Under the pieces are notes generated by a model. That model searched no databases and was not told the DNA's origin. It saw only the letters and a program-made list of their open reading frames with translations. Made by a program: the position numbers and the translations under genes. Positions 3,104 through 19,719 of a stretch of DNA of 64,000 bases are shown here, piece after piece (positions within the stretch are counted from its first letter, which is position 1; each line of letters starts with the position of its first letter). The stretch lies in the NCBI RefSeq assembly GCF_044324875.1, contig NZ_CP172185.1, one strand, 5' to 3'. This DNA is from Escherichia coli (GTDB lineage: Bacteria > Pseudomonadota > Gammaproteobacteria > Enterobacterales > Enterobacteriaceae).

Positions 3104-3268
3104 ATGGCAAAGCCGATCATCACGCTCAATGGCCTAAAAATCGTCATTATGTTGGGAATGCTGGTCATTATTCTCTGCGGTATCCGTTTTGCCGCCGAGA
3201 TCATCGTGCCGTTTATTCTCGCATTATTTATTGCTGTTATATATAACTTATTTCACTTAACACATTGA
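3104..3268 (+). pseudogene. tqsA: tqsA 5' fragment (first ~45 codons of the AI-2 exporter), truncated by island insertion
   Basis: Translates [46 protein letters not shown] then runs into island sequence and stops after 9 more codons. Confidence 0.8.
3232..3240. repeat. attL core, left copy of the 9-bp direct repeat TGCTGTTAT
   Basis: Identical 9-mer at 18813-18821; tqsA reading frame continues across the two copies. Confidence 0.7.
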
Positions 3269-3310
3269 TTTAATTAAATAATTTACACTACAAAAAGTGC
3301 CAAAAATCGC

Positions 3311-3375
3311 AAATTAACTACACCATTAACTACACCGTTCGGCGCACTGTATGAAACAACGTGGAACAAATAGGC
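3311..3375. promoter_or_regulatory. attL-proximal arm repeats: 2x AACTACACC (11-bp period) and 2x GAAACAA/GGAACAA (10-bp period)
   Basis: Direct repeats read from sequence; related repeats near attR; approximate coordinates. Confidence 0.5.
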
Positions 3376-3554
3376 ACAAGAAATATAAAGGCGGGTAATT
3401 TTTAGGGGGCGTTAATGTCGATATGGGGATCCACATATCGAGATTGATACCTGGCTTTTTTTCCGGTTAACCTTTAATCAGGCTGGTGGGCTTTACCTGT
3501 TCTGTAGGAGTGGTCATTATGACCATTCAGCCAATGACCTTAATCAGAATTTTT

Positions 3555-3582
3555 CGCTAAAAAATGACGTTGGCCACGTCAT
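3555..3582 (-). terminator. Rho-independent terminator at the end of the island leftward operon
   Basis: On minus strand: stem ATGACGT/ACGTCAT with 5-nt loop followed by UUUUUU; downstream of last island gene. Confidence 0.55.
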
Positions 3583-3652
3583 CCGGAAAGCACAAAATCA
3601 CGTCGATTTTTAATGGATGGTTAAACCGTCTTTATCTCGATGTCCGTACGTA

Positions 3653-3943
3653 TTACGTACGCAGTCGTTCCGGCTTCTTCCAGTGGTACGTATTTTTCGC
3701 GCTCTCCCTCCGTTGTTGAGAACGGCGACGGTATGCCAGCAACTCAAGGACTCTTGTTCGTATGTTGCGCATATCCACGCCGTTAAGCTCAATACCATCA
3801 CGGCGCATCACCTCCGCAACAACACGCACATAATTTTCGGCGGTCACGCTGTCCGGCTGCGTGGCCTGTTCGTCATGCTGCTGGCTGATTCCGGTAACGC
3901 GGCGGATTAATCCCAGTAGTTCGGCTTCGCTCATTCTCGTCAT
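3653..3943 (-). CDS. hypothetical protein, last gene of packaging operon
   Basis: 96 aa ORF; start overlaps terL stop by 4 bp (translational coupling); no recognisable motif. Confidence 0.55.
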   Translation of the reverse strand: MTRMSEAELLGLIRRVTGISQQHDEQATQPDSVTAENYVRVVAEVMRRDGIELNGVDMRNIRTRVLELLAYRRRSQQRRESAKNTYHWKKPERLRT

Positions 3944-5601
3944 ACCCCATCAAACGCCGCAAGCCGCTCTTTGTGGCTGTCGCTCATATCGAATGCAAAT
4001 TCCTCATGCTCTGCCTGGAATGTGCCAAACGCCATCAGCGCCGCAACGCTCGGGTCTATCTTGTTGGATGATTTTTTCTTGTTCGGCTTGATATTGGCGT
4101 TCGCGTCACTCTGCATCACAACATTACTCATTGACCAGGCCAGCACCGGATCACCACGATGCACAATCACCTTCCGGTTAACAAAAACTTCGAACGATTT
4201 CGCCGCCGGACTGAAACGAAGGTATGTTTGCGGGAACGGCTCCACCTCAAATCCCGCCCCCTGTAGCTGTGTTCTCAGGTGAGTGGCGTTCCATGTATCG
4301 AAGCCCACCAGCCTGATACTGAAATTCTCTGCATCCGCCATGATGTCATCACGGATACGGTCATAATCAATGCAGTCACCCGGTGTTGTGCGTATCCAGC
4401 CAGCCTTTACCCACTGGCGATAGATGGCGCGGTTTTTATTGGCGGGGTTCTGTAGCTGAAATTCCGGCAGATAGTGACGGGAAACCAGCATAATTTTTTT
4501 ACCGACCGGGAAGGCATAGCACACGCTGGAAATATCGCTGGTTGATGATAAGTCCAGCCCCGCGTAGCACTCCTGCCCGTATAAATCCGCCTCCGCGAAC
4601 GTTCCGGCGCACTCCGCCCATGCACCGTTACCCATCCACGGCGTAGCCCCCTGACACCAGATATTGAATCGCTTGGTGAGCATTTCCACCCACTGCGACG
4701 GAATACCCCGCGCTTTCTGGATGGTTGAGGCCAGTTTTTCACGATCGACGGAAACATCGATATTGGGATTCGCCTTTATCCACATCGCCGGATCGTCAAC
4801 CTCGCTTTCATCATCCAGCTCGTAAATCAGCACGAACATGGATTCGTTCACCTCTTCACCATCCAGTATCTGGCAGCAATAGTCATAGTGTTGTTTACAG
4901 GCTGAAACAACGTTGCTCCCCGATGTGGTGATGGCAAATAACAGCCCCTCCGGACGCGCCCCCATTCCCAGCTCAAGCGCGGAATAAACCCCGTTGTCAG
5001 GGTGCAGGTGATATTCATCCACAATGGCAAGACTCGGGTTTGTACCTTCAATGGTTGCCGCTTTTGCTGCCAGTGGCTTTAACAGGCTGTTGGTTTTCGC
5101 GTGTATCACCTTGTGTGCCTGAATATTTACCCGCTTTCGTAACGGTCGGGATAAAAGGCACATCTGACGCGCATCATCAAACACGATCCGCGCCTGATCA
5201 CGACTCACGGCGGCGGTGTAAATATCCTGCTGCCCGTTTTCCATAACCAGAAACCAGTTAGCCAGGATAGCGGCGACCGTGGATTTGGCATTTTTTCGCG
5301 GTACTTCAATGAATGCGCTGGTGTATTTGCGCCGTCCGGTGGCCTTAACCTTAAAGCCCAGGATGCACGCAAAGGCGAACTGCTGCCACGGCTCCAGCTC
5401 AATGGGGCTACCGCGCATTGCGCCTTTTACGTGCGGACACACCCTGGAAAAGGCAATAAACCGCTCCACGACCTCCGGATCGAACGTGTAAAGGGGGTTT
5501 TCAAGGTCAGAAAAATACCGTTTAACAGCCTGTTTCAGTCGTTTACAGGCCGTAATTTTGCCGTTTTTTACGCCTTCTGCGTACTCATGCCAGGCGGTCA
5601 A
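3940..5601 (-). CDS. terL: terminase large subunit
   Basis: 553 aa; ATPase N-terminal region and nuclease C-terminal region typical of phage TerL; adjacent to TerS and HNH. Confidence 0.85.
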   Translation of the reverse strand: MTAWHEYAEGVKNGKITACKRLKQAVKRYFSDLENPLYTFDPEVVERFIAFSRVCPHVKGAMRGSPIELEPWQQFAFACILGFKVKATGRRKYTSAFIEVPRKNAKSTVAAILANWFLVMENGQQDIYTAAVSRDQARIVFDDARQMCLLSRPLRKRVNIQAHKVIHAKTNSLLKPLAAKAATIEGTNPSLAIVDEYHLHPDNGVYSALELGMGARPEGLLFAITTSGSNVVSACKQHYDYCCQILDGEEVNESMFVLIYELDDESEVDDPAMWIKANPNIDVSVDREKLASTIQKARGIPSQWVEMLTKRFNIWCQGATPWMGNGAWAECAGTFAEADLYGQECYAGLDLSSTSDISSVCYAFPVGKKIMLVSRHYLPEFQLQNPANKNRAIYRQWVKAGWIRTTPGDCIDYDRIRDDIMADAENFSIRLVGFDTWNATHLRTQLQGAGFEVEPFPQTYLRFSPAAKSFEVFVNRKVIVHRGDPVLAWSMSNVVMQSDANANIKPNKKKSSNKIDPSVAALMAFGTFQAEHEEFAFDMSDSHKERLAAFDGV

Positions 5602-6064: not shown

Positions 6065-6247
6065 TCAGCGATTGCGGAAACATTCCATAACCTCGCGGTC
6101 ACGGTCGTTTAATCGCGTCGCTGTGATGCGTTCTGCGCGTCCTGATGCTTTATCTTTATGCCCTGTTTCCTGTGCCTTCCATGCGTCACGCTGCCTTATC
6201 AGTCCACGAATAAGGCTGTTTTGTTCCCGTTCATTCATCAGCGTCAT
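6065..6247 (-). CDS. small hypothetical protein between HNH and terS
   Basis: Internal start MTLMNE of ORF 6065-6481, fills the gap between HNH and terS; no similarity recognised. Confidence 0.3.
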   Translation of the reverse strand: MTLMNEREQNSLIRGLIRQRDAWKAQETGHKDKASGRAERITATRLNDRDREVMECFRNR

Positions 6248-6671
6248 ACATCCAGTTATTGCGGTTGGCTGCCCGTTCTTCCTCCTCACGGAATCCGCCA
6301 ACTGCACGCTTGTTTTTTGTGGCCGGATCAAGCCATTTCGTTTTCTGGTTATGACACGCCTGACACAATGGCTGATGATTCCACTCAGGCCAGAAGAGAA
6401 CATCATTACCGCCATCGATGGGGATAATGTGATCCACCACCACGGCGGGCGTGTATATTCCTTTTTCCAGGCAATGCGCACATAACGGGTTTTTACTCAG
6501 GTACATAGCGCGGTATTTCTCCCACTGCCTCGTATACCCTCGCTCCCTGCTGCTGCCTCTCCGGCTGTCCTGCTGCTGGCGTGCGCTGCGTCTGTGCTCC
6601 TCACACTTGCCGGACTTCACGCGCCTGTTGCAGCCTGGTTGTGTGCATCGTCTCAATGGTTGCCACGGCAT
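6231..6671 (-). CDS. HNH endonuclease (packaging-associated)
   Basis: 146 aa; Cys-rich with HNH-type His/Asn motif (DHIIPIDGGND...NHQPLCQACHNQK); directly upstream of terS as in HNH-dependent cos packaging systems. Confidence 0.8.
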   Translation of the reverse strand: MPWQPLRRCTQPGCNRRVKSGKCEEHRRSARQQQDSRRGSSRERGYTRQWEKYRAMYLSKNPLCAHCLEKGIYTPAVVVDHIIPIDGGNDVLFWPEWNHQPLCQACHNQKTKWLDPATKNKRAVGGFREEEERAANRNNWMYDADE

Positions 6672-6967
6672 CAGTACACCCCCACATCACGATAAACCGA
6701 CCAGAGCGCGGAAATCGTCAGGGGAATTTCTTTTGTATCGGTATCGCCAAGCGTTGTCCGGTACTCGTACAGTTGCGAGATGTACATCAGGCAACCAATT
6801 TTTATTGCAGGGGTAAATTCCAGGCCGTCATCAAAACGCCTGCCAATATGCTTCTGGCATACCTCCAGCGCCGCGCTTATGTATGCCTGAATCAGTGTGT
6901 CTTCTGTGTTACCATCTATGCGGCAGTGAAGTTTGGCCTCTTCCAGGGTTATTTTTTCTGCTGTCAT
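6671..6967 (-). CDS. head-tail connector protein (gp6-like)
   Basis: 98 aa; size, position and sequence pattern of phage gp6-like connector proteins. Confidence 0.6.
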   Translation of the reverse strand: MTAEKITLEEAKLHCRIDGNTEDTLIQAYISAALEVCQKHIGRRFDDGLEFTPAIKIGCLMYISQLYEYRTTLGDTDTKEIPLTISALWSVYRDVGVY

Positions 6968-7302
6968 TTTTCTGTACCCACCTTTGCCAGAATTTCCAGC
7001 CGGGTTCTTTTCGCATCAGGTAAGGGGATCCCGATGATATTAAGCGTGCTCCCGGCAAAAGCGCCGGTAAGCACTTTCAGGCGACTGGCGGCGGATATGT
7101 CGCCACGATAGCGAACCCATACCCGAATCGTTGCAGGTGCGGTTTCTGCGCCTGCGGTCAGTAATTCCCGTCCGCTGATCCCCTTGACCTCTGCCCAGAT
7201 GGTTTCCCCTTCCGTCCATATCTGCTGGATCGCACCTGACGGCAGGCGCTGTGTGGTAAATGTCATAATCGTCACCCGGTCCCGCATCTTTCCGGCTATC
7301 AT
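6964..7302 (-). CDS. head closure / head-tail adaptor protein
   Basis: 112 aa; position next to portal and connector; overlapping stop/start with neighbours. Confidence 0.55.
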   Translation of the reverse strand: MIAGKMRDRVTIMTFTTQRLPSGAIQQIWTEGETIWAEVKGISGRELLTAGAETAPATIRVWVRYRGDISAASRLKVLTGAFAGSTLNIIGIPLPDAKRTRLEILAKVGTEK

Positions 7303-17033: not shown

Positions 17034-17193
17034 TATTGCCCCCTTTCGTTTCTTAAAGAGTTATTTCGTGTTCTATTGCGTTGGTATGTGTCTGATTGTG
17101 TCAGGGTGATTCAGAGTTGGCAAATGTTGGTGGCGGGTATTTTACAGAAACGGGGTAATTTTAATAAAAAACATTTTAATTCAGTATTATGCA

Positions 17194-17226
17194 AAGGCAT
17201 AAAATCTCGTTTTATGCCTTTTTTCT
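17194..17226 (+). terminator. Orphan hairpin plus T-run between int and alpA
   Basis: AAGGCATAAAA..TTTTATGCCTT stem followed by TTTTTT on + strand; no + strand gene upstream. Confidence 0.35.
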
Positions 17227-17315
17227 CACTATTTAAAGCGTTATTCGCTAATGTATAAAAAACCAGTTGAGCATTAAAAATCAGCAACTTATAAGTCTGT
17301 ATACTTTTTCGCCTC

Positions 17316-17360
17316 TTGTTCGTGGTTGTTCCACGTTGTTTCACATTGTTCGCCGTTGTA
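17316..17360. repeat. Four tandem 10-bp GAACAA-type repeats (minus-strand orientation) between int and alpA
   Basis: Reverse complement reads GCGAACAATG TGAAACAACG TGGAACAACC ACGAACAAG. Confidence 0.6.
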
Positions 17361-17407
17361 TCTGTGTGCTTATCCAGTATGCGCATACTGAAAAAACACG
17401 AAAAAAA

Positions 17408-18637
17408 TTATTTTCTTCTGGCTACTGGTAGCGTGGTTACGTTTTCATGTGCTCCCGCCAGTATCTCCAACCGCTCCACCCACATATCCAGCGCATTGCG
17501 TTTCGCATCCAGATAACGGGAATGATTATAAACTCGCTGCATTCCTGGCATCTGGTGGCCTGTAAGCTGCTCCACGACATGCGGATCAACGCCTAAATCG
17601 TTCAGCATGGTTGTAAAGGTGCGCCGGATGTCATGCAGTGACCAGTGAGGGTGTTTAAGCCTCCTGTGCGCTAATCTTCCATACTGCGATACGCTGGCCT
17701 CCTGTTTCACTTCCCCCAGCAATAAGCCCGTGTGCCTGTTCTGCTCCACCAGCTGCGTGACGAACGGCAGTATCGCTTCCGGTATGGGCCGGAATATGGC
17801 TACCTTCGTTTTGCTGTGCTCCTTCGGAACGGTCCATAGCATTTCGGTAAAATCCCACTCCCCGATCTCCGATAGCCTCAGTTCTACTGTCCTGGCTCCG
17901 AAGACAATCAGGAGGCGGATTAGTGCGACGTAGTAAGGGGAAAATATTTTTTTATCCAGCGCCTGCAATAACTCGCCCAGTTCTTTGGTGCTTAAGACAC
18001 GTTCGCTTATATCCGGTTTTTTCCCAACGTCCGCCACGTTCAGATCGTCCAGAACGTTGCTGATTGCATAGCGCCGCCTACGGCAAAACTTAAGCGCCTG
18101 TTTGCACGCCTGTAGCACGAATCCGGCAGTAACAGGCGTTCGCTTTGCCACCTGGTCAAAACAGGCCAGCCAGTGCCGTAGCTCGCATTTATCCAGCGGC
18201 ATAGCACCAATGTGCTGTATTACGTGATTATTAACTCGCCTTTTCAGGGCGATATAATCCACGCGGTTTTCCTTTACGTAAGACTCAAGCCAGTAGGTGA
18301 GCGCATCGCCAACCGTTACCGGCTTTAACGCTTCCTGTACGGCGTAATTCATCTCATGGCGTGGATTTTTCCCCTCCGCCAGCCATGCGCGACACTGGGC
18401 GGCTTTTTCCCTGGCTGCTTTCAGGCTCAGATCAGGATAATTTCCCAGCTTAATACGTTCCGGTCGTGTCTCTCTTCCCGTTCCTGCCCTGTAAGTGAAA
18501 TACCAGGTTAATATCCCTGATGTTAAATATTTCACGCTCAGATTTCCGCCATCGCTATAAAACGTGTTTTTCTCCGCTGGCTTACCATGAAGTTTCCTTA
18601 GCAAGGTATCGCTCAGTTTGTTCATTGCTCTGCTCAC
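17408..18637 (-). CDS. int: tyrosine integrase, P4 type
   Basis: 409 aa; N-terminal arm-binding domain pattern and C-terminal catalytic region (HDIRRT...Y); terminal position next to attR. Confidence 0.9.
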   Translation of the reverse strand: MSRAMNKLSDTLLRKLHGKPAEKNTFYSDGGNLSVKYLTSGILTWYFTYRAGTGRETRPERIKLGNYPDLSLKAAREKAAQCRAWLAEGKNPRHEMNYAVQEALKPVTVGDALTYWLESYVKENRVDYIALKRRVNNHVIQHIGAMPLDKCELRHWLACFDQVAKRTPVTAGFVLQACKQALKFCRRRRYAISNVLDDLNVADVGKKPDISERVLSTKELGELLQALDKKIFSPYYVALIRLLIVFGARTVELRLSEIGEWDFTEMLWTVPKEHSKTKVAIFRPIPEAILPFVTQLVEQNRHTGLLLGEVKQEASVSQYGRLAHRRLKHPHWSLHDIRRTFTTMLNDLGVDPHVVEQLTGHQMPGMQRVYNHSRYLDAKRNALDMWVERLEILAGAHENVTTLPVARRK

Positions 18638-18661: not shown

Positions 18662-18790
18662 GTGACTACACCAGTGACTACACCGATCGTTGCACAAAGG
18701 GCTACAACGTGAAACAAGCTGGAACAAGAAAAATCACAAATTTGTTTATAATCAAAAACATAATGAACAAACTGAAACATTATGAAACGG
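18662..18790. promoter_or_regulatory. attR-proximal arm repeats and int promoter region: 2x GTGACTACACC, then GAAACAA/GGAACAA and TGAACAAAC/TGAAAC repeats
   Basis: Direct repeats read from sequence immediately upstream of int and inside attR arm. Confidence 0.5.
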
Positions 18791-18812: not shown

Positions 18813-18821
18813 TGCTGTTAT
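18813..18821. repeat. attR core, right copy of TGCTGTTAT
   Basis: Identical to 3232-3240; tqsA sequence resumes. Confidence 0.7.
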
Positions 18822-19719
18822 TCTTAACCCGCTGGTGCAACACATGGTCCGCTGGCGTGTGCCGCGTGTACTGGCAGTGTCGATTTTGATGACCATCATC
18901 GTGATGGCGATGGTGTTGCTATTAGCTTATCTGGGTTCCGCGCTCAACGAGTTGACGCGGACGTTACCGCAATATCGCAACTCTATTATGACGCCGCTGC
19001 AAGCGATTGAACCGTTGTTGCAACGCGTAGGGATTGATGTCTCAGTTGACCAACTGGCGCATTACATTGATCCGAACGCGGCGATGACGTTGCTCACCAA
19101 CTTATTGACGCAGTTATCTAATGCCATGTCATCAATATTTTTATTGCTGCTGACGGTGCTGTTTATGCTGCTCGAAGTGCCACAATTGCCCGGAAAATTT
19201 CAGCAAATGATGGCGCGTCCGGTTGAAGGGATGGCGGCGATTCAGCGTGCGATTGACAGTGTTTCTCATTATCTGGTGCTGAAAACAGCCATCAGCATCA
19301 TCACCGGCCTGGTCGCCTGGGCGATGCTCGCCGCACTCGATGTTCGCTTCGCTTTTGTCTGGGGATTGCTGGCCTTTGCGCTTAATTACATCCCGAATAT
19401 TGGTTCAGTTCTCGCGGCAATCCCCCCTATCGCTCAGGTATTGGTGTTTAATGGCTTCTACGAAGCGTTGCTGGTGCTGGCGGGATATCTGCTGATTAAT
19501 CTGGTCTTCGGCAATATTCTGGAGCCACGCATCATGGGGCGTGGGCTGGGGCTTTCCACGTTGGTGGTATTTCTGTCGTTGATTTTTTGGGGATGGTTGT
19601 TAGGACCGGTGGGTATGCTGCTTTCCGTGCCGTTGACAATTATTGTCAAAATTGCGCTTGAACAAACAGCGGGAGGTCAAAGCATCGCCGTTCTGTTAAG
19701 CGATCTCAATAAAGAGTGA
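18813..19719 (+). pseudogene. tqsA: tqsA 3' portion (AI-2 exporter lacking its first ~45 codons)
   Basis: Sequence continues [13 protein letters not shown]...; in-frame stops (TGA TAA) immediately upstream in island DNA; ORF track 18835-19719. Confidence 0.8.

Follow-up and report, generated by a model that had tools for sequence, protein, structure and literature searches.

A small open reading frame (ORF) that follows terL, the gene of the large terminase subunit, near one end of a 64,000-nucleotide stretch of Escherichia coli DNA (contig NZ_CP172185.1; the whole stretch is called the window) is a real gene of a conserved backbone family of phage satellites. The satellite is a capsid-forming phage-inducible chromosomal island (cf-PICI; PICI, phage-inducible chromosomal island) inserted in tqsA, and the small gene is neither part of its captured HK97-type packaging module nor variable cargo. 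Though catalogued, the family is uncharacterised. It is specific to satellites, themselves a known type of element, is widely conserved and is apparently absent from published tests. An earlier note on this DNA had described a gene that closes the packaging operon at its 3' end, tight against terL, in a position typical of an accessory-gene slot. The gene proved genuine, as judged by profile matches, homologues and selection, but the slot did not: the variable position lies further downstream, where other islands carry inserted DNA such as a Fic gene in TUM9757 and where the conserved sequence is split into two blocks. On balance we favour a reading in which the gene closes the cf-PICI's late operon as its terminal cistron, belongs to a conserved satellite-specific backbone family and encodes a protein that would act in trans, through its C-terminal tail, on a host factor or nucleic acid. 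Within this reading we hold the statements on the identity of the gene with high confidence, and the proposed mode of action of its product is tentative.

A catalogued family under purifying selection

The protein matches the profile of phrog_1561 over its full length (E=3.2e-56, residues 4-95) and that of phrog_7271 over its C-terminal part (E=7.6e-10, residues 41-95). The full-length hidden Markov model (HMM) match is to a family of 93 aa, and the short family (63 aa) comprises a helical hairpin and tail. In a diverse set of 20 homologous sequences, all 20 matched phrog_7271 and 17 matched phrog_1561. Both PHROG entries give the function as unknown and are silent on satellites, gene position and the tail motif. 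Homologues fall into 1011 clusters at 90% identity, all annotated as hypothetical, and the mean ratio of nonsynonymous to synonymous substitution rates (dN/dS) of 0.22 over 1157 pairs, from 49 distinct 282-nt homologues, indicates purifying selection. A chance ORF or a decaying remnant at the island end would fit the want of any annotated function and an antisense frame that is open in most homologues, but this explanation is effectively refuted by the full-length HMM match, the number of clusters and the dN/dS ratio as well as by a conserved start codon with sequences resembling Shine-Dalgarno (SD) motifs, the operon orientation and a confidently predicted fold. The antisense frame itself (plus strand, window positions 3617-3910) is open for 97 codons, and more than 80 codons are open in 48 of the 49 distinct homologues; its openness is probably compositional.

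As the earlier note had stated, a function is not evident from the sequence. Neither the long nor the short forms matched Pfam (E<=0.1), NCBIfam or PADLOC, searching the PDB with sequence profiles from two alignments yielded nothing beyond chance matches (to an arylamine N-acetyltransferase, and to the string YQWKK in Ig-like tail domains), and fold searches with the predicted structure returned only generic hairpins and no informative structural neighbour. The small protein matched none of the profiles for head-completion and head-tail connector proteins (Phage_HCP, Phage_connect_1 and related ones) and none of the Xis, HTH_17 and AlpA-type profiles. Two leads were dropped: a DUF3811 label given to one member by one source is unsupported by Pfam, and the small “UvrB-like” EcCIMP1_002 of another PICI paper, suspected to belong to the family, has no namesake among the members in the cluster look-up.

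The family is concentrated in satellites. A phmmer search against 1.84 billion cluster representatives returned 38 matches, mostly fragments, among which the lone outlier, a eukaryotic mucin-like repeat protein, was judged spurious. Species-representative genomes held a single locus, in Cedecea; these representative genomes are mostly without such islands. Among 50,697 phage records searched with tblastn, one matched, and the match was a terL-orf65-attP-int segment, that is, a cf-PICI. Neither of the two outcomes that would have refuted the earlier note, a lack of conservation in related islands or a clear assignment as a routine head-completion protein, was found: homologues are present in EcCIEDL933, EcCICFT073, IMG/VR islands and the 1011 clusters, and a head-completion assignment finds neither a Pfam match nor a phage record other than this cf-PICI.

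The matching record (PQ569648.1, “Klebsiella phage P12620-1”, 106.5 kb; locus L089) carries the cf-PICI segment at 91-95 kb. Its order of terL, a 65-aa homologue, att region and PICI-type integrase is the one expected for an excised and circularised cf-PICI. The 65-aa ORF is unannotated there, and the record may be composite.

The gene is shared by several kinds of satellite

EcCIEDL933, the prototype cf-PICI, carries a homologue (EDL933_RS08745, WP_000133425.1) that is ~78-80% identical to the window's, depending on the method. It lies directly after terL in the same orientation and has the same C-terminal tail, but unlike the window's gene it starts 13 nt past the terL stop with a GAGG of its own and without overlap; the island occupies the roxA/phoQ site and has ~550 nt of extra DNA downstream of the gene. 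A homologue is also carried by further cf-PICIs of E. coli, integrated at the phoQ/roxA and yifB sites. EcCICFT073, the prototype of the lambda-type PICIs, has one as well (C_RS07030, WP_000133413.1; 78% identical, 93 aa). There no further gene separates it from the phoQ-side att site, just as the window's gene ends its own island, and it follows the Nu1-like rppA (c1503) after a 279-nt intergenic region, 65 nt beyond an inverted cosN (cos2); unlike the window's island, EcCICFT073 has no terminase. Most of the close IMG/VR relatives (up to 97% identical) are in fact found in classical lambda-type PICIs, not in cf-PICIs, next to genes for an E-like capsid, a D-like decoration protein, AlpA-like proteins and Nu1-like Rpp proteins.

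Short forms of 59-65 aa (phrog_7271) follow terL in Klebsiella/Enterobacter-type cf-PICIs, where they overlap or abut its stop codon, and they also occur in distant satellites beside genes that include PerC-like and helix-turn-helix (HTH) ones; the ORFs downstream vary. The att sites of islands with a homologue include tqsA, phoQ/roxA and yifB. The variable presence or defence function by which PICI cargo is recognised is thus not what we see: the gene is conserved across att sites and has no PADLOC match. In three of the distant satellites (L008, L103 and L127) a conserved gene of ~150 aa beginning ...SKSNLVAFRIPSELQ... accompanies the short homologue; it is convergent with or adjacent to the homologue, has no Pfam match and looks like a ribbon-helix-helix protein by eye only.

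The junction with terL and the start codon

As listed, the ORF spans 3653..3943 on the minus strand and encodes 96 aa from an ATG. terL ends ...GGG GTA TGA on that strand with the ATG at 3943-3941, and the 4-nt overlap with the terL stop described by the earlier note is present. The start codon conserved in the family is nevertheless the next ATG: Met4 (window 3934) aligns with the family start in every homologue and locus compared, most annotated homologues have 93 aa, and the upstream in-frame ATG adds three residues. The conserved ATG is situated 5 nt after the terL stop, and the overlapping ATG is limited to a sub-lineage in which terL ends ...GTATGA (the type with the 5-nt gap). Elsewhere the spacing differs. 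The gap between terL and the gene is 13-14 nt in other cf-PICIs, which have their own GAGG, and -4 or +2 nt relative to the terL stop in Klebsiella-type cf-PICIs; in classical PICIs (IMG/VR loci) the gene begins 11, 73 or 255 nt after the Nu1-like rpp gene. Across the other lineages the conserved start codon is accompanied by an SD-like GGGGG or GAGG. The GAGG of EcCIEDL933 is absent from the window through an 8-nt deletion, which leaves a GGGG 10 nt upstream of the conserved ATG. Because the GAGG of other lineages is missing, ribosomes that finish terL would probably reinitiate 5 nt downstream at the small gene.

The translational coupling proposed in the earlier note therefore has the right geometry in the window, with both the ATGA overlap and a conserved ATG 5 nt past the stop, but the overlap is specific to one lineage, and the functional tie to terL that coupling might provide is weak. 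Identity of the ORF does not track identity of terL: in TUM9757 the identity to the window is 99.6% for terL and 77% for the ORF, LH50-c has values of 96.9% for terL and 91.6% for the ORF, and locus L009 has an ORF of 97% identity and no terL (BLAST identities; an ungapped comparison is crude owing to indels). These mismatches place a recombination breakpoint at the junction of terL and the ORF, and the small gene recombines independently of terL. The string GATGGGG, which encodes the last residues of the window's terL, is met again in classical PICIs, where it forms the ribosome-binding region of the small gene; the packaging module is spliced in precisely at this region.

Loci were also selected by terL alone, of which approximately 69 were informative. 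The gene is present in ~50 of the 69, nearly always within 14 nt of the stop. In the remaining 19 (among IMG/VR loci L140-L190, for example L140 at 4162-5415) the island end abuts a 3' fragment of another TerL gene (PF20441) on contigs of 25-60 kb, and this lineage looks like cf-PICIs embedded in a prophage terminase gene (compare PMC10111431).

The variable slot lies downstream of the gene

The ORF and the att core are separated by ~410 nt, which hold a terminator, a cargo-insertion point and integrase arm-type repeats (Table 1). Folding supports the operon terminator that the earlier note had placed after the ORF. A hairpin with the stem GAUGACGU/ACGUCAU (7-8 bp) and the loop GGCCA is followed by U6, 70-94 nt past the stop codon, and has the make-up of an intrinsic terminator; with only 3 G-C pairs its strength is uncertain, and a consensus scan did not flag a terminator at this place. 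Related loci have the same hairpin at an offset of 69 from the stop; lineages beyond these have different elements of a hairpin and a T-run. Judged by these features, the late operon probably ends at the hairpin. At the stop codon, which lies in the loop of a perfect palindrome (Table 1), the ...CTGCGTACGTAA ending is shared by the window and the L010, L016 and L029 types.

In BLAST comparisons the downstream region breaks into two separately conserved blocks, q1-143 with the hairpin and q133-415 with the att arm. Between them, other islands have 80-550 nt of extra DNA or a Fic gene, and in TUM9757 the Fic gene stands between the small-gene homologue and the att site. Because the inserted DNA is seen between the two blocks, the accessory slot is placed beyond the small gene; it starts past the terminator of the gene, near 3496-3523.

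The att junction beside the ORF is real, but it is attR by prophage convention, not the attL of the earlier note, because the integrase sits at the opposite end of the island. The doubled arm-type motifs ATTAACTACACC x2 and GTGACTACACC x2 flank the att core on either side, at distances of ~85 and 140 bp, and match the doubled motifs described around PICI attP, for which the binding protein was not settled (PMC10111431). Rfam gave no match within 3200-4000. A mini-ORF of 13 codons (MTIQPMTLIRIFR; plus strand, 3515-3556) behind a good AGGAG overlaps the inverted repeat at the block boundary, inside the conserved block between terminator and cargo point; it may be due to chance.

Table 1. Coordinates of the small gene and of associated features in the window
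Feature	Position	Strand	Basis and remarks
Small-protein coding sequence, 93 aa from ATG at 3934	3653..3934	minus	Stop TAA 3653-3655; phrog_1561 match, conserved start, dN/dS
ATGA junction, 4-nt overlap	3940..3943	minus	terL stop TGA 3942-3940 overlapping ATG 3943-3941; sequence reading and locus comparison
Tail codons Y-H-W-K-K-P-E-R-L-R-T	3656..3688 (core Y-x-W-K/R-K-P 3671-3688)	minus	Alignment of 20 sequences
Perfect palindrome CGTACGTAATACGTACG, stop codon in loop	3645..3661	minus	Specific to sub-lineage; sequence and folding
Terminator-like hairpin and U6	3559..3583 (approximate)	minus	Minimum free energy and centroid folds
Block boundary and cargo slot, inverted repeat GAGTGGTCAT/ATGACCATTC	3496..3523		BLAST blocks and inverted-repeat scan
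Doubled arm-type motif ATTAACTACACC x2	3313..3336		Direct repeat
Partner doubled motif GTGACTACACC x2	~18662-18684		ACTACACC cores begin 18665 and 18677
att core TGCTGTTAT	3233-3241; second copy 18814-18822	n/a	Splits tqsA; sequence reading and motif positions
terL, large terminase subunit, 553 aa	3940..5601	minus	Pfam TerL_ATPase 8.8e-26, TerL_nuclease 6.1e-52
Two connector genes of the island	6671-7302	minus	Pfam
P4-type tyrosine integrase	17408-18637	minus	At the island end opposite the small gene

A predicted basic helical hairpin with a near-invariant tail

Remote-homology searches and structure prediction, suggested by the earlier note, found no relative and yielded a model of a basic helical hairpin with a low-confidence tail. 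AlphaFold2, run with the diverse 20-sequence alignment, predicts the hairpin at residues 27-45 and 52-82 with a confidence score (pLDDT) above 90, a weaker N-terminal helix that is connected to it through a disordered acidic linker, and a C-terminal tail that is probably flexible. The isoelectric point (pI) is 10.5 for the whole protein and 11.1 for the C-terminal 63 aa. Some lineages are missing the N-terminal helix or the first helix of the hairpin.

The tail has the form Y-x-W-K/R-K-P-x(2-3)-R-R by the stop codon (YHWKKPERLRT* in the window), a motif defined from our own alignment of the 20 diverse sequences, whose invariant residues are Y, W, K, K, P and R; rare W-R-K-P variants exist. The Lys codons of WKKP are AAG AAG in ~90% of 52 distinct nucleotide versions (50 and 46 of the 52), and the neighbouring codons vary freely at synonymous sites. 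E. coli prefers AAA for Lys. The window holds no second copy of the tail-encoding DNA.

Two known systems invite comparison. The psu gene of satellite P4 is the last gene of a late operon, before the side with cos, variable region and int, and its product Psu acts on host Rho and not on the packaging enzymes of the helper. It is a positional analogue only: Psu is about twice the size of the small protein and also decorates capsids, there is no sequence or fold similarity between the two, and nothing Psu-like appeared in any search. The resemblance to the Arg-rich RNA-binding peptides of the lambdoid proteins N and Nun is one of composition only, with an aromatic and Lys cluster coming after an Arg-rich helix (RRRSQQRRESAKNTYHWKK). 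Their motif is N-terminal and that of the small protein C-terminal; no profile matched at E<=0.1, and no boxB-like partner was identified.

Published experiments that bear on the gene

According to the cf-PICI paper, every packaging-module mutant lost transfer except the mutant in the hypothetical gene 1792, which was severely affected. A later paper names gene 1786 as the capsid gene of EcCIEDL933. Counting along the EDL933 order (our own numbering) gives HNH as 1791, a 60-aa ORF as 1792, terS as 1793, terL as 1794 and the homologue of the small gene as 1795. The possibility that gene 1792 is the small gene was rejected on this numbering, which puts 1792 between HNH and terS. In the text of the papers, figures not included, no published test of EcCIEDL933 gene 1795 was found, and by the numbering the mutant series stops at terL. 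The small gene is also missing where the packaging module of cf-PICIs is listed in print. The same group regards the stretches that flank the packaging operon on both sides as variable and expects them to encode immune systems.

Gene 1792 is the one hypothetical gene of the packaging module for which a mutant phenotype is published. Its homologue in the window is a 60-aa ORF at 6065-6247 (minus strand) between HNH and terS and with no Pfam match. It occupies the place expected of an HK97-type cos, and the phenotype of the 1792 mutant might reflect damage to cos.

For EcCICFT073, the genes beyond the origin are reported to have been expressed one by one from pBAD18, and only rppA (c1503) inhibited lambda; the small gene would have been among these clones, although this is not stated. 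Deletion of cos2, just upstream of the small gene, is reported not to have lowered transfer.

Possible functions of the small gene

Across islands the small gene sits after whichever late or packaging module is present, behind terL in cf-PICIs and behind rpp and cos2 in lambda-type PICIs. We propose that the protein is made late, from the terL transcript, and that it acts in trans through its basic aromatic tail. The tail is constant across satellites whose helpers (HK97-like, lambda-like and others) are unrelated, and phages lack the gene. The target of the tail is therefore more likely to be nucleic acid or a host factor than a component of the helper phage or the terminase. The protein would then probably serve a step common to chromosomal PICIs, either the end of late transcription or events at attP, at cos or during establishment; a role in head assembly seems less likely. 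A bolder version, which we consider decidedly unlikely, has the tail as a host-directed effector motif of essentially all chromosomal enterobacterial PICIs, for example in a small Psu- or N-like modulator of transcription termination or a comparable binder of a host machine. Such a protein, made from the last position of the late operon, would decide between a stop at the terminal hairpin and run-on into the cargo slot and, in the circular form, across attP into int.

Several points weigh against the reading of a trans-acting terminal cistron. One cf-PICI, L118, has its homologue on the opposite strand, between the genes for capsid and primase, which means that the terminal position is not universal. 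The 19 of ~69 terL-selected loci without the gene have a terL that is 99% identical, so that the gene is not required for every satellite lifestyle. The GGGG 10 nt upstream of the conserved ATG could be a weak independent ribosome-binding site, and a host-encoded target is suggested by the distribution of the family only.

Among the alternatives, a recombination accessory is the least improbable, even if we think it unlikely: a small basic DNA-bending or integrase-binding protein on the att arm that would serve the P4-type integrase as directionality factor or integration helper. Its size and charge would be typical, the order on the circle (ORF, terminator, arm repeats, core, arm repeats and int, all co-oriented) is suitable and is seen directly in PQ569648, the cf-PICI lineage without the gene integrates elsewhere, namely inside prophage terL, and the study of the doubled att motif left open an unknown DNA-binding protein (PMC10111431). 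Yet the tail is near-invariant while the nearby integrases are 49% down to 24-29% identical to the window's, the gene is sometimes far from att (as in L118), no HTH, Xis or AlpA profile matched, and expression from the end of the late operon would come late for excision in elements that already have AlpA-type proteins. A terminase or packaging accessory, which coupling would keep at a fixed ratio with TerL and which might aid cos recognition, prohead docking or DNA stabilisation, would explain the tight position after terL in the window, EcCIEDL933 and the Klebsiella cf-PICIs, the basic charge and the place beside cos2 in classical PICIs. What makes it improbable is that 97%-identical homologues reside in PICIs without their own terminase, portal or HK97-type capsid, that the gene does not co-vary with terL and is lacking from a lineage with a 99%-identical terL, and that phages with the same packaging system do not have it; moreover, it is missing from the published packaging-module lists, and the EcCICFT073 cos2 deletion beside it left transfer unreduced.

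The idea from which the earlier note started, an accessory or cargo gene for defence, virulence or helper interference in a variable slot on the att side, can draw on the description of variable regions around the packaging operon, one of which the gene adjoins, and on its absence from phages. It is highly improbable, given that the gene is conserved in hundreds of islands at several att sites, has no PADLOC match and is followed by the true cargo (Fic), and that rppA alone inhibited lambda among the expressed EcCICFT073 genes, which presumably included it. Nor is much probability left for a cis-acting regulatory ORF, which we rate as barely plausible. Here the tail peptide or its translation would control termination and read-through into the cargo or across attP into int, in the manner of a leader or arrest peptide; the tail motif is not known to resemble any arrest peptide. 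The concentration of conservation in the last ~12 codons behind N-terminal parts that vary in length and content, the AAG AAG bias, the stop codon in a hairpin loop with a terminator after it and the variable genes directly downstream in many islands would all suit such a mechanism. It fits less well with a hairpin predicted at pLDDT above 90, a dN/dS of 0.22 that is averaged over the whole ORF and the tolerance of W-R-K-P variants; moreover, islands without cargo behind the gene, such as the window's, retain it, and the downstream genes are sometimes convergent.

Virulence, resistance and defence genes are moved among enterobacteria by PICI-type satellites, of which cf-PICIs form a new and intensively studied class. 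Besides the integrase and replication genes, the small gene is one of few that are common to cf-, lambda-type and more distant PICIs. Its backbone status marks the real cargo-insertion point, which helps the mining of satellite-borne defence systems, and its tail offers a short and sharply defined motif for mutagenesis. If the tail does target a host factor, a helper-independent step of satellite biology would be revealed; should the effector version hold, this would be an overlooked universal satellite function, independent of the helper phage exploited.

The island in tqsA

Ordinary E. coli genes fill the first 3.2 kb of the window, up to the 5' part of tqsA, which is broken off at 3241 and whose 3' part returns at 18835-19719 (match to the AI-2E_transport family). 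The integrase, replication and head genes described here, in the 15.6 kb between the att cores, are all on the minus strand. All eight head and packaging genes have Pfam matches and stand in cf-PICI order, that is capsid, prohead protease, portal, head-closure protein, gp6-like connector, HNH, terS and terL (10332 down to 3940, minus strand); the island accordingly has an HK97-type module of its own, with the gene content and order described for proteobacterial cf-PICIs in the cf-PICI paper. The remaining features are those of a PICI backbone, with an integrase at one end, a replication module with a RepA-like helicase (AAA_25), a single-stranded DNA-binding protein (SSB) and PerC, and a length of ~15 kb. 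The ORF list of the island includes no tail or lysis ORFs, and a lambda-type cosN was not found in the island.

No complete E. coli genome of the collection has an identical island. The nearest among them, in strain LH50-c, shows 93% coverage and 96.5% identity and uses a different att site. Beside int, where an AlpA-type regulator would be expected, a 91-aa ORF (17111-17386) has no Pfam match at E<=0.01; at the equivalent place EcCIEDL933 has a helix-turn-helix gene. Three copies of TTTTGCTCCCCACTTTTT at a spacing of 83-85 bp, inside a larger 46-nt repeat, lie at 12662-12875 just upstream of the gene for the RepA-like helicase and are probably the iterons of the replication origin of the island.

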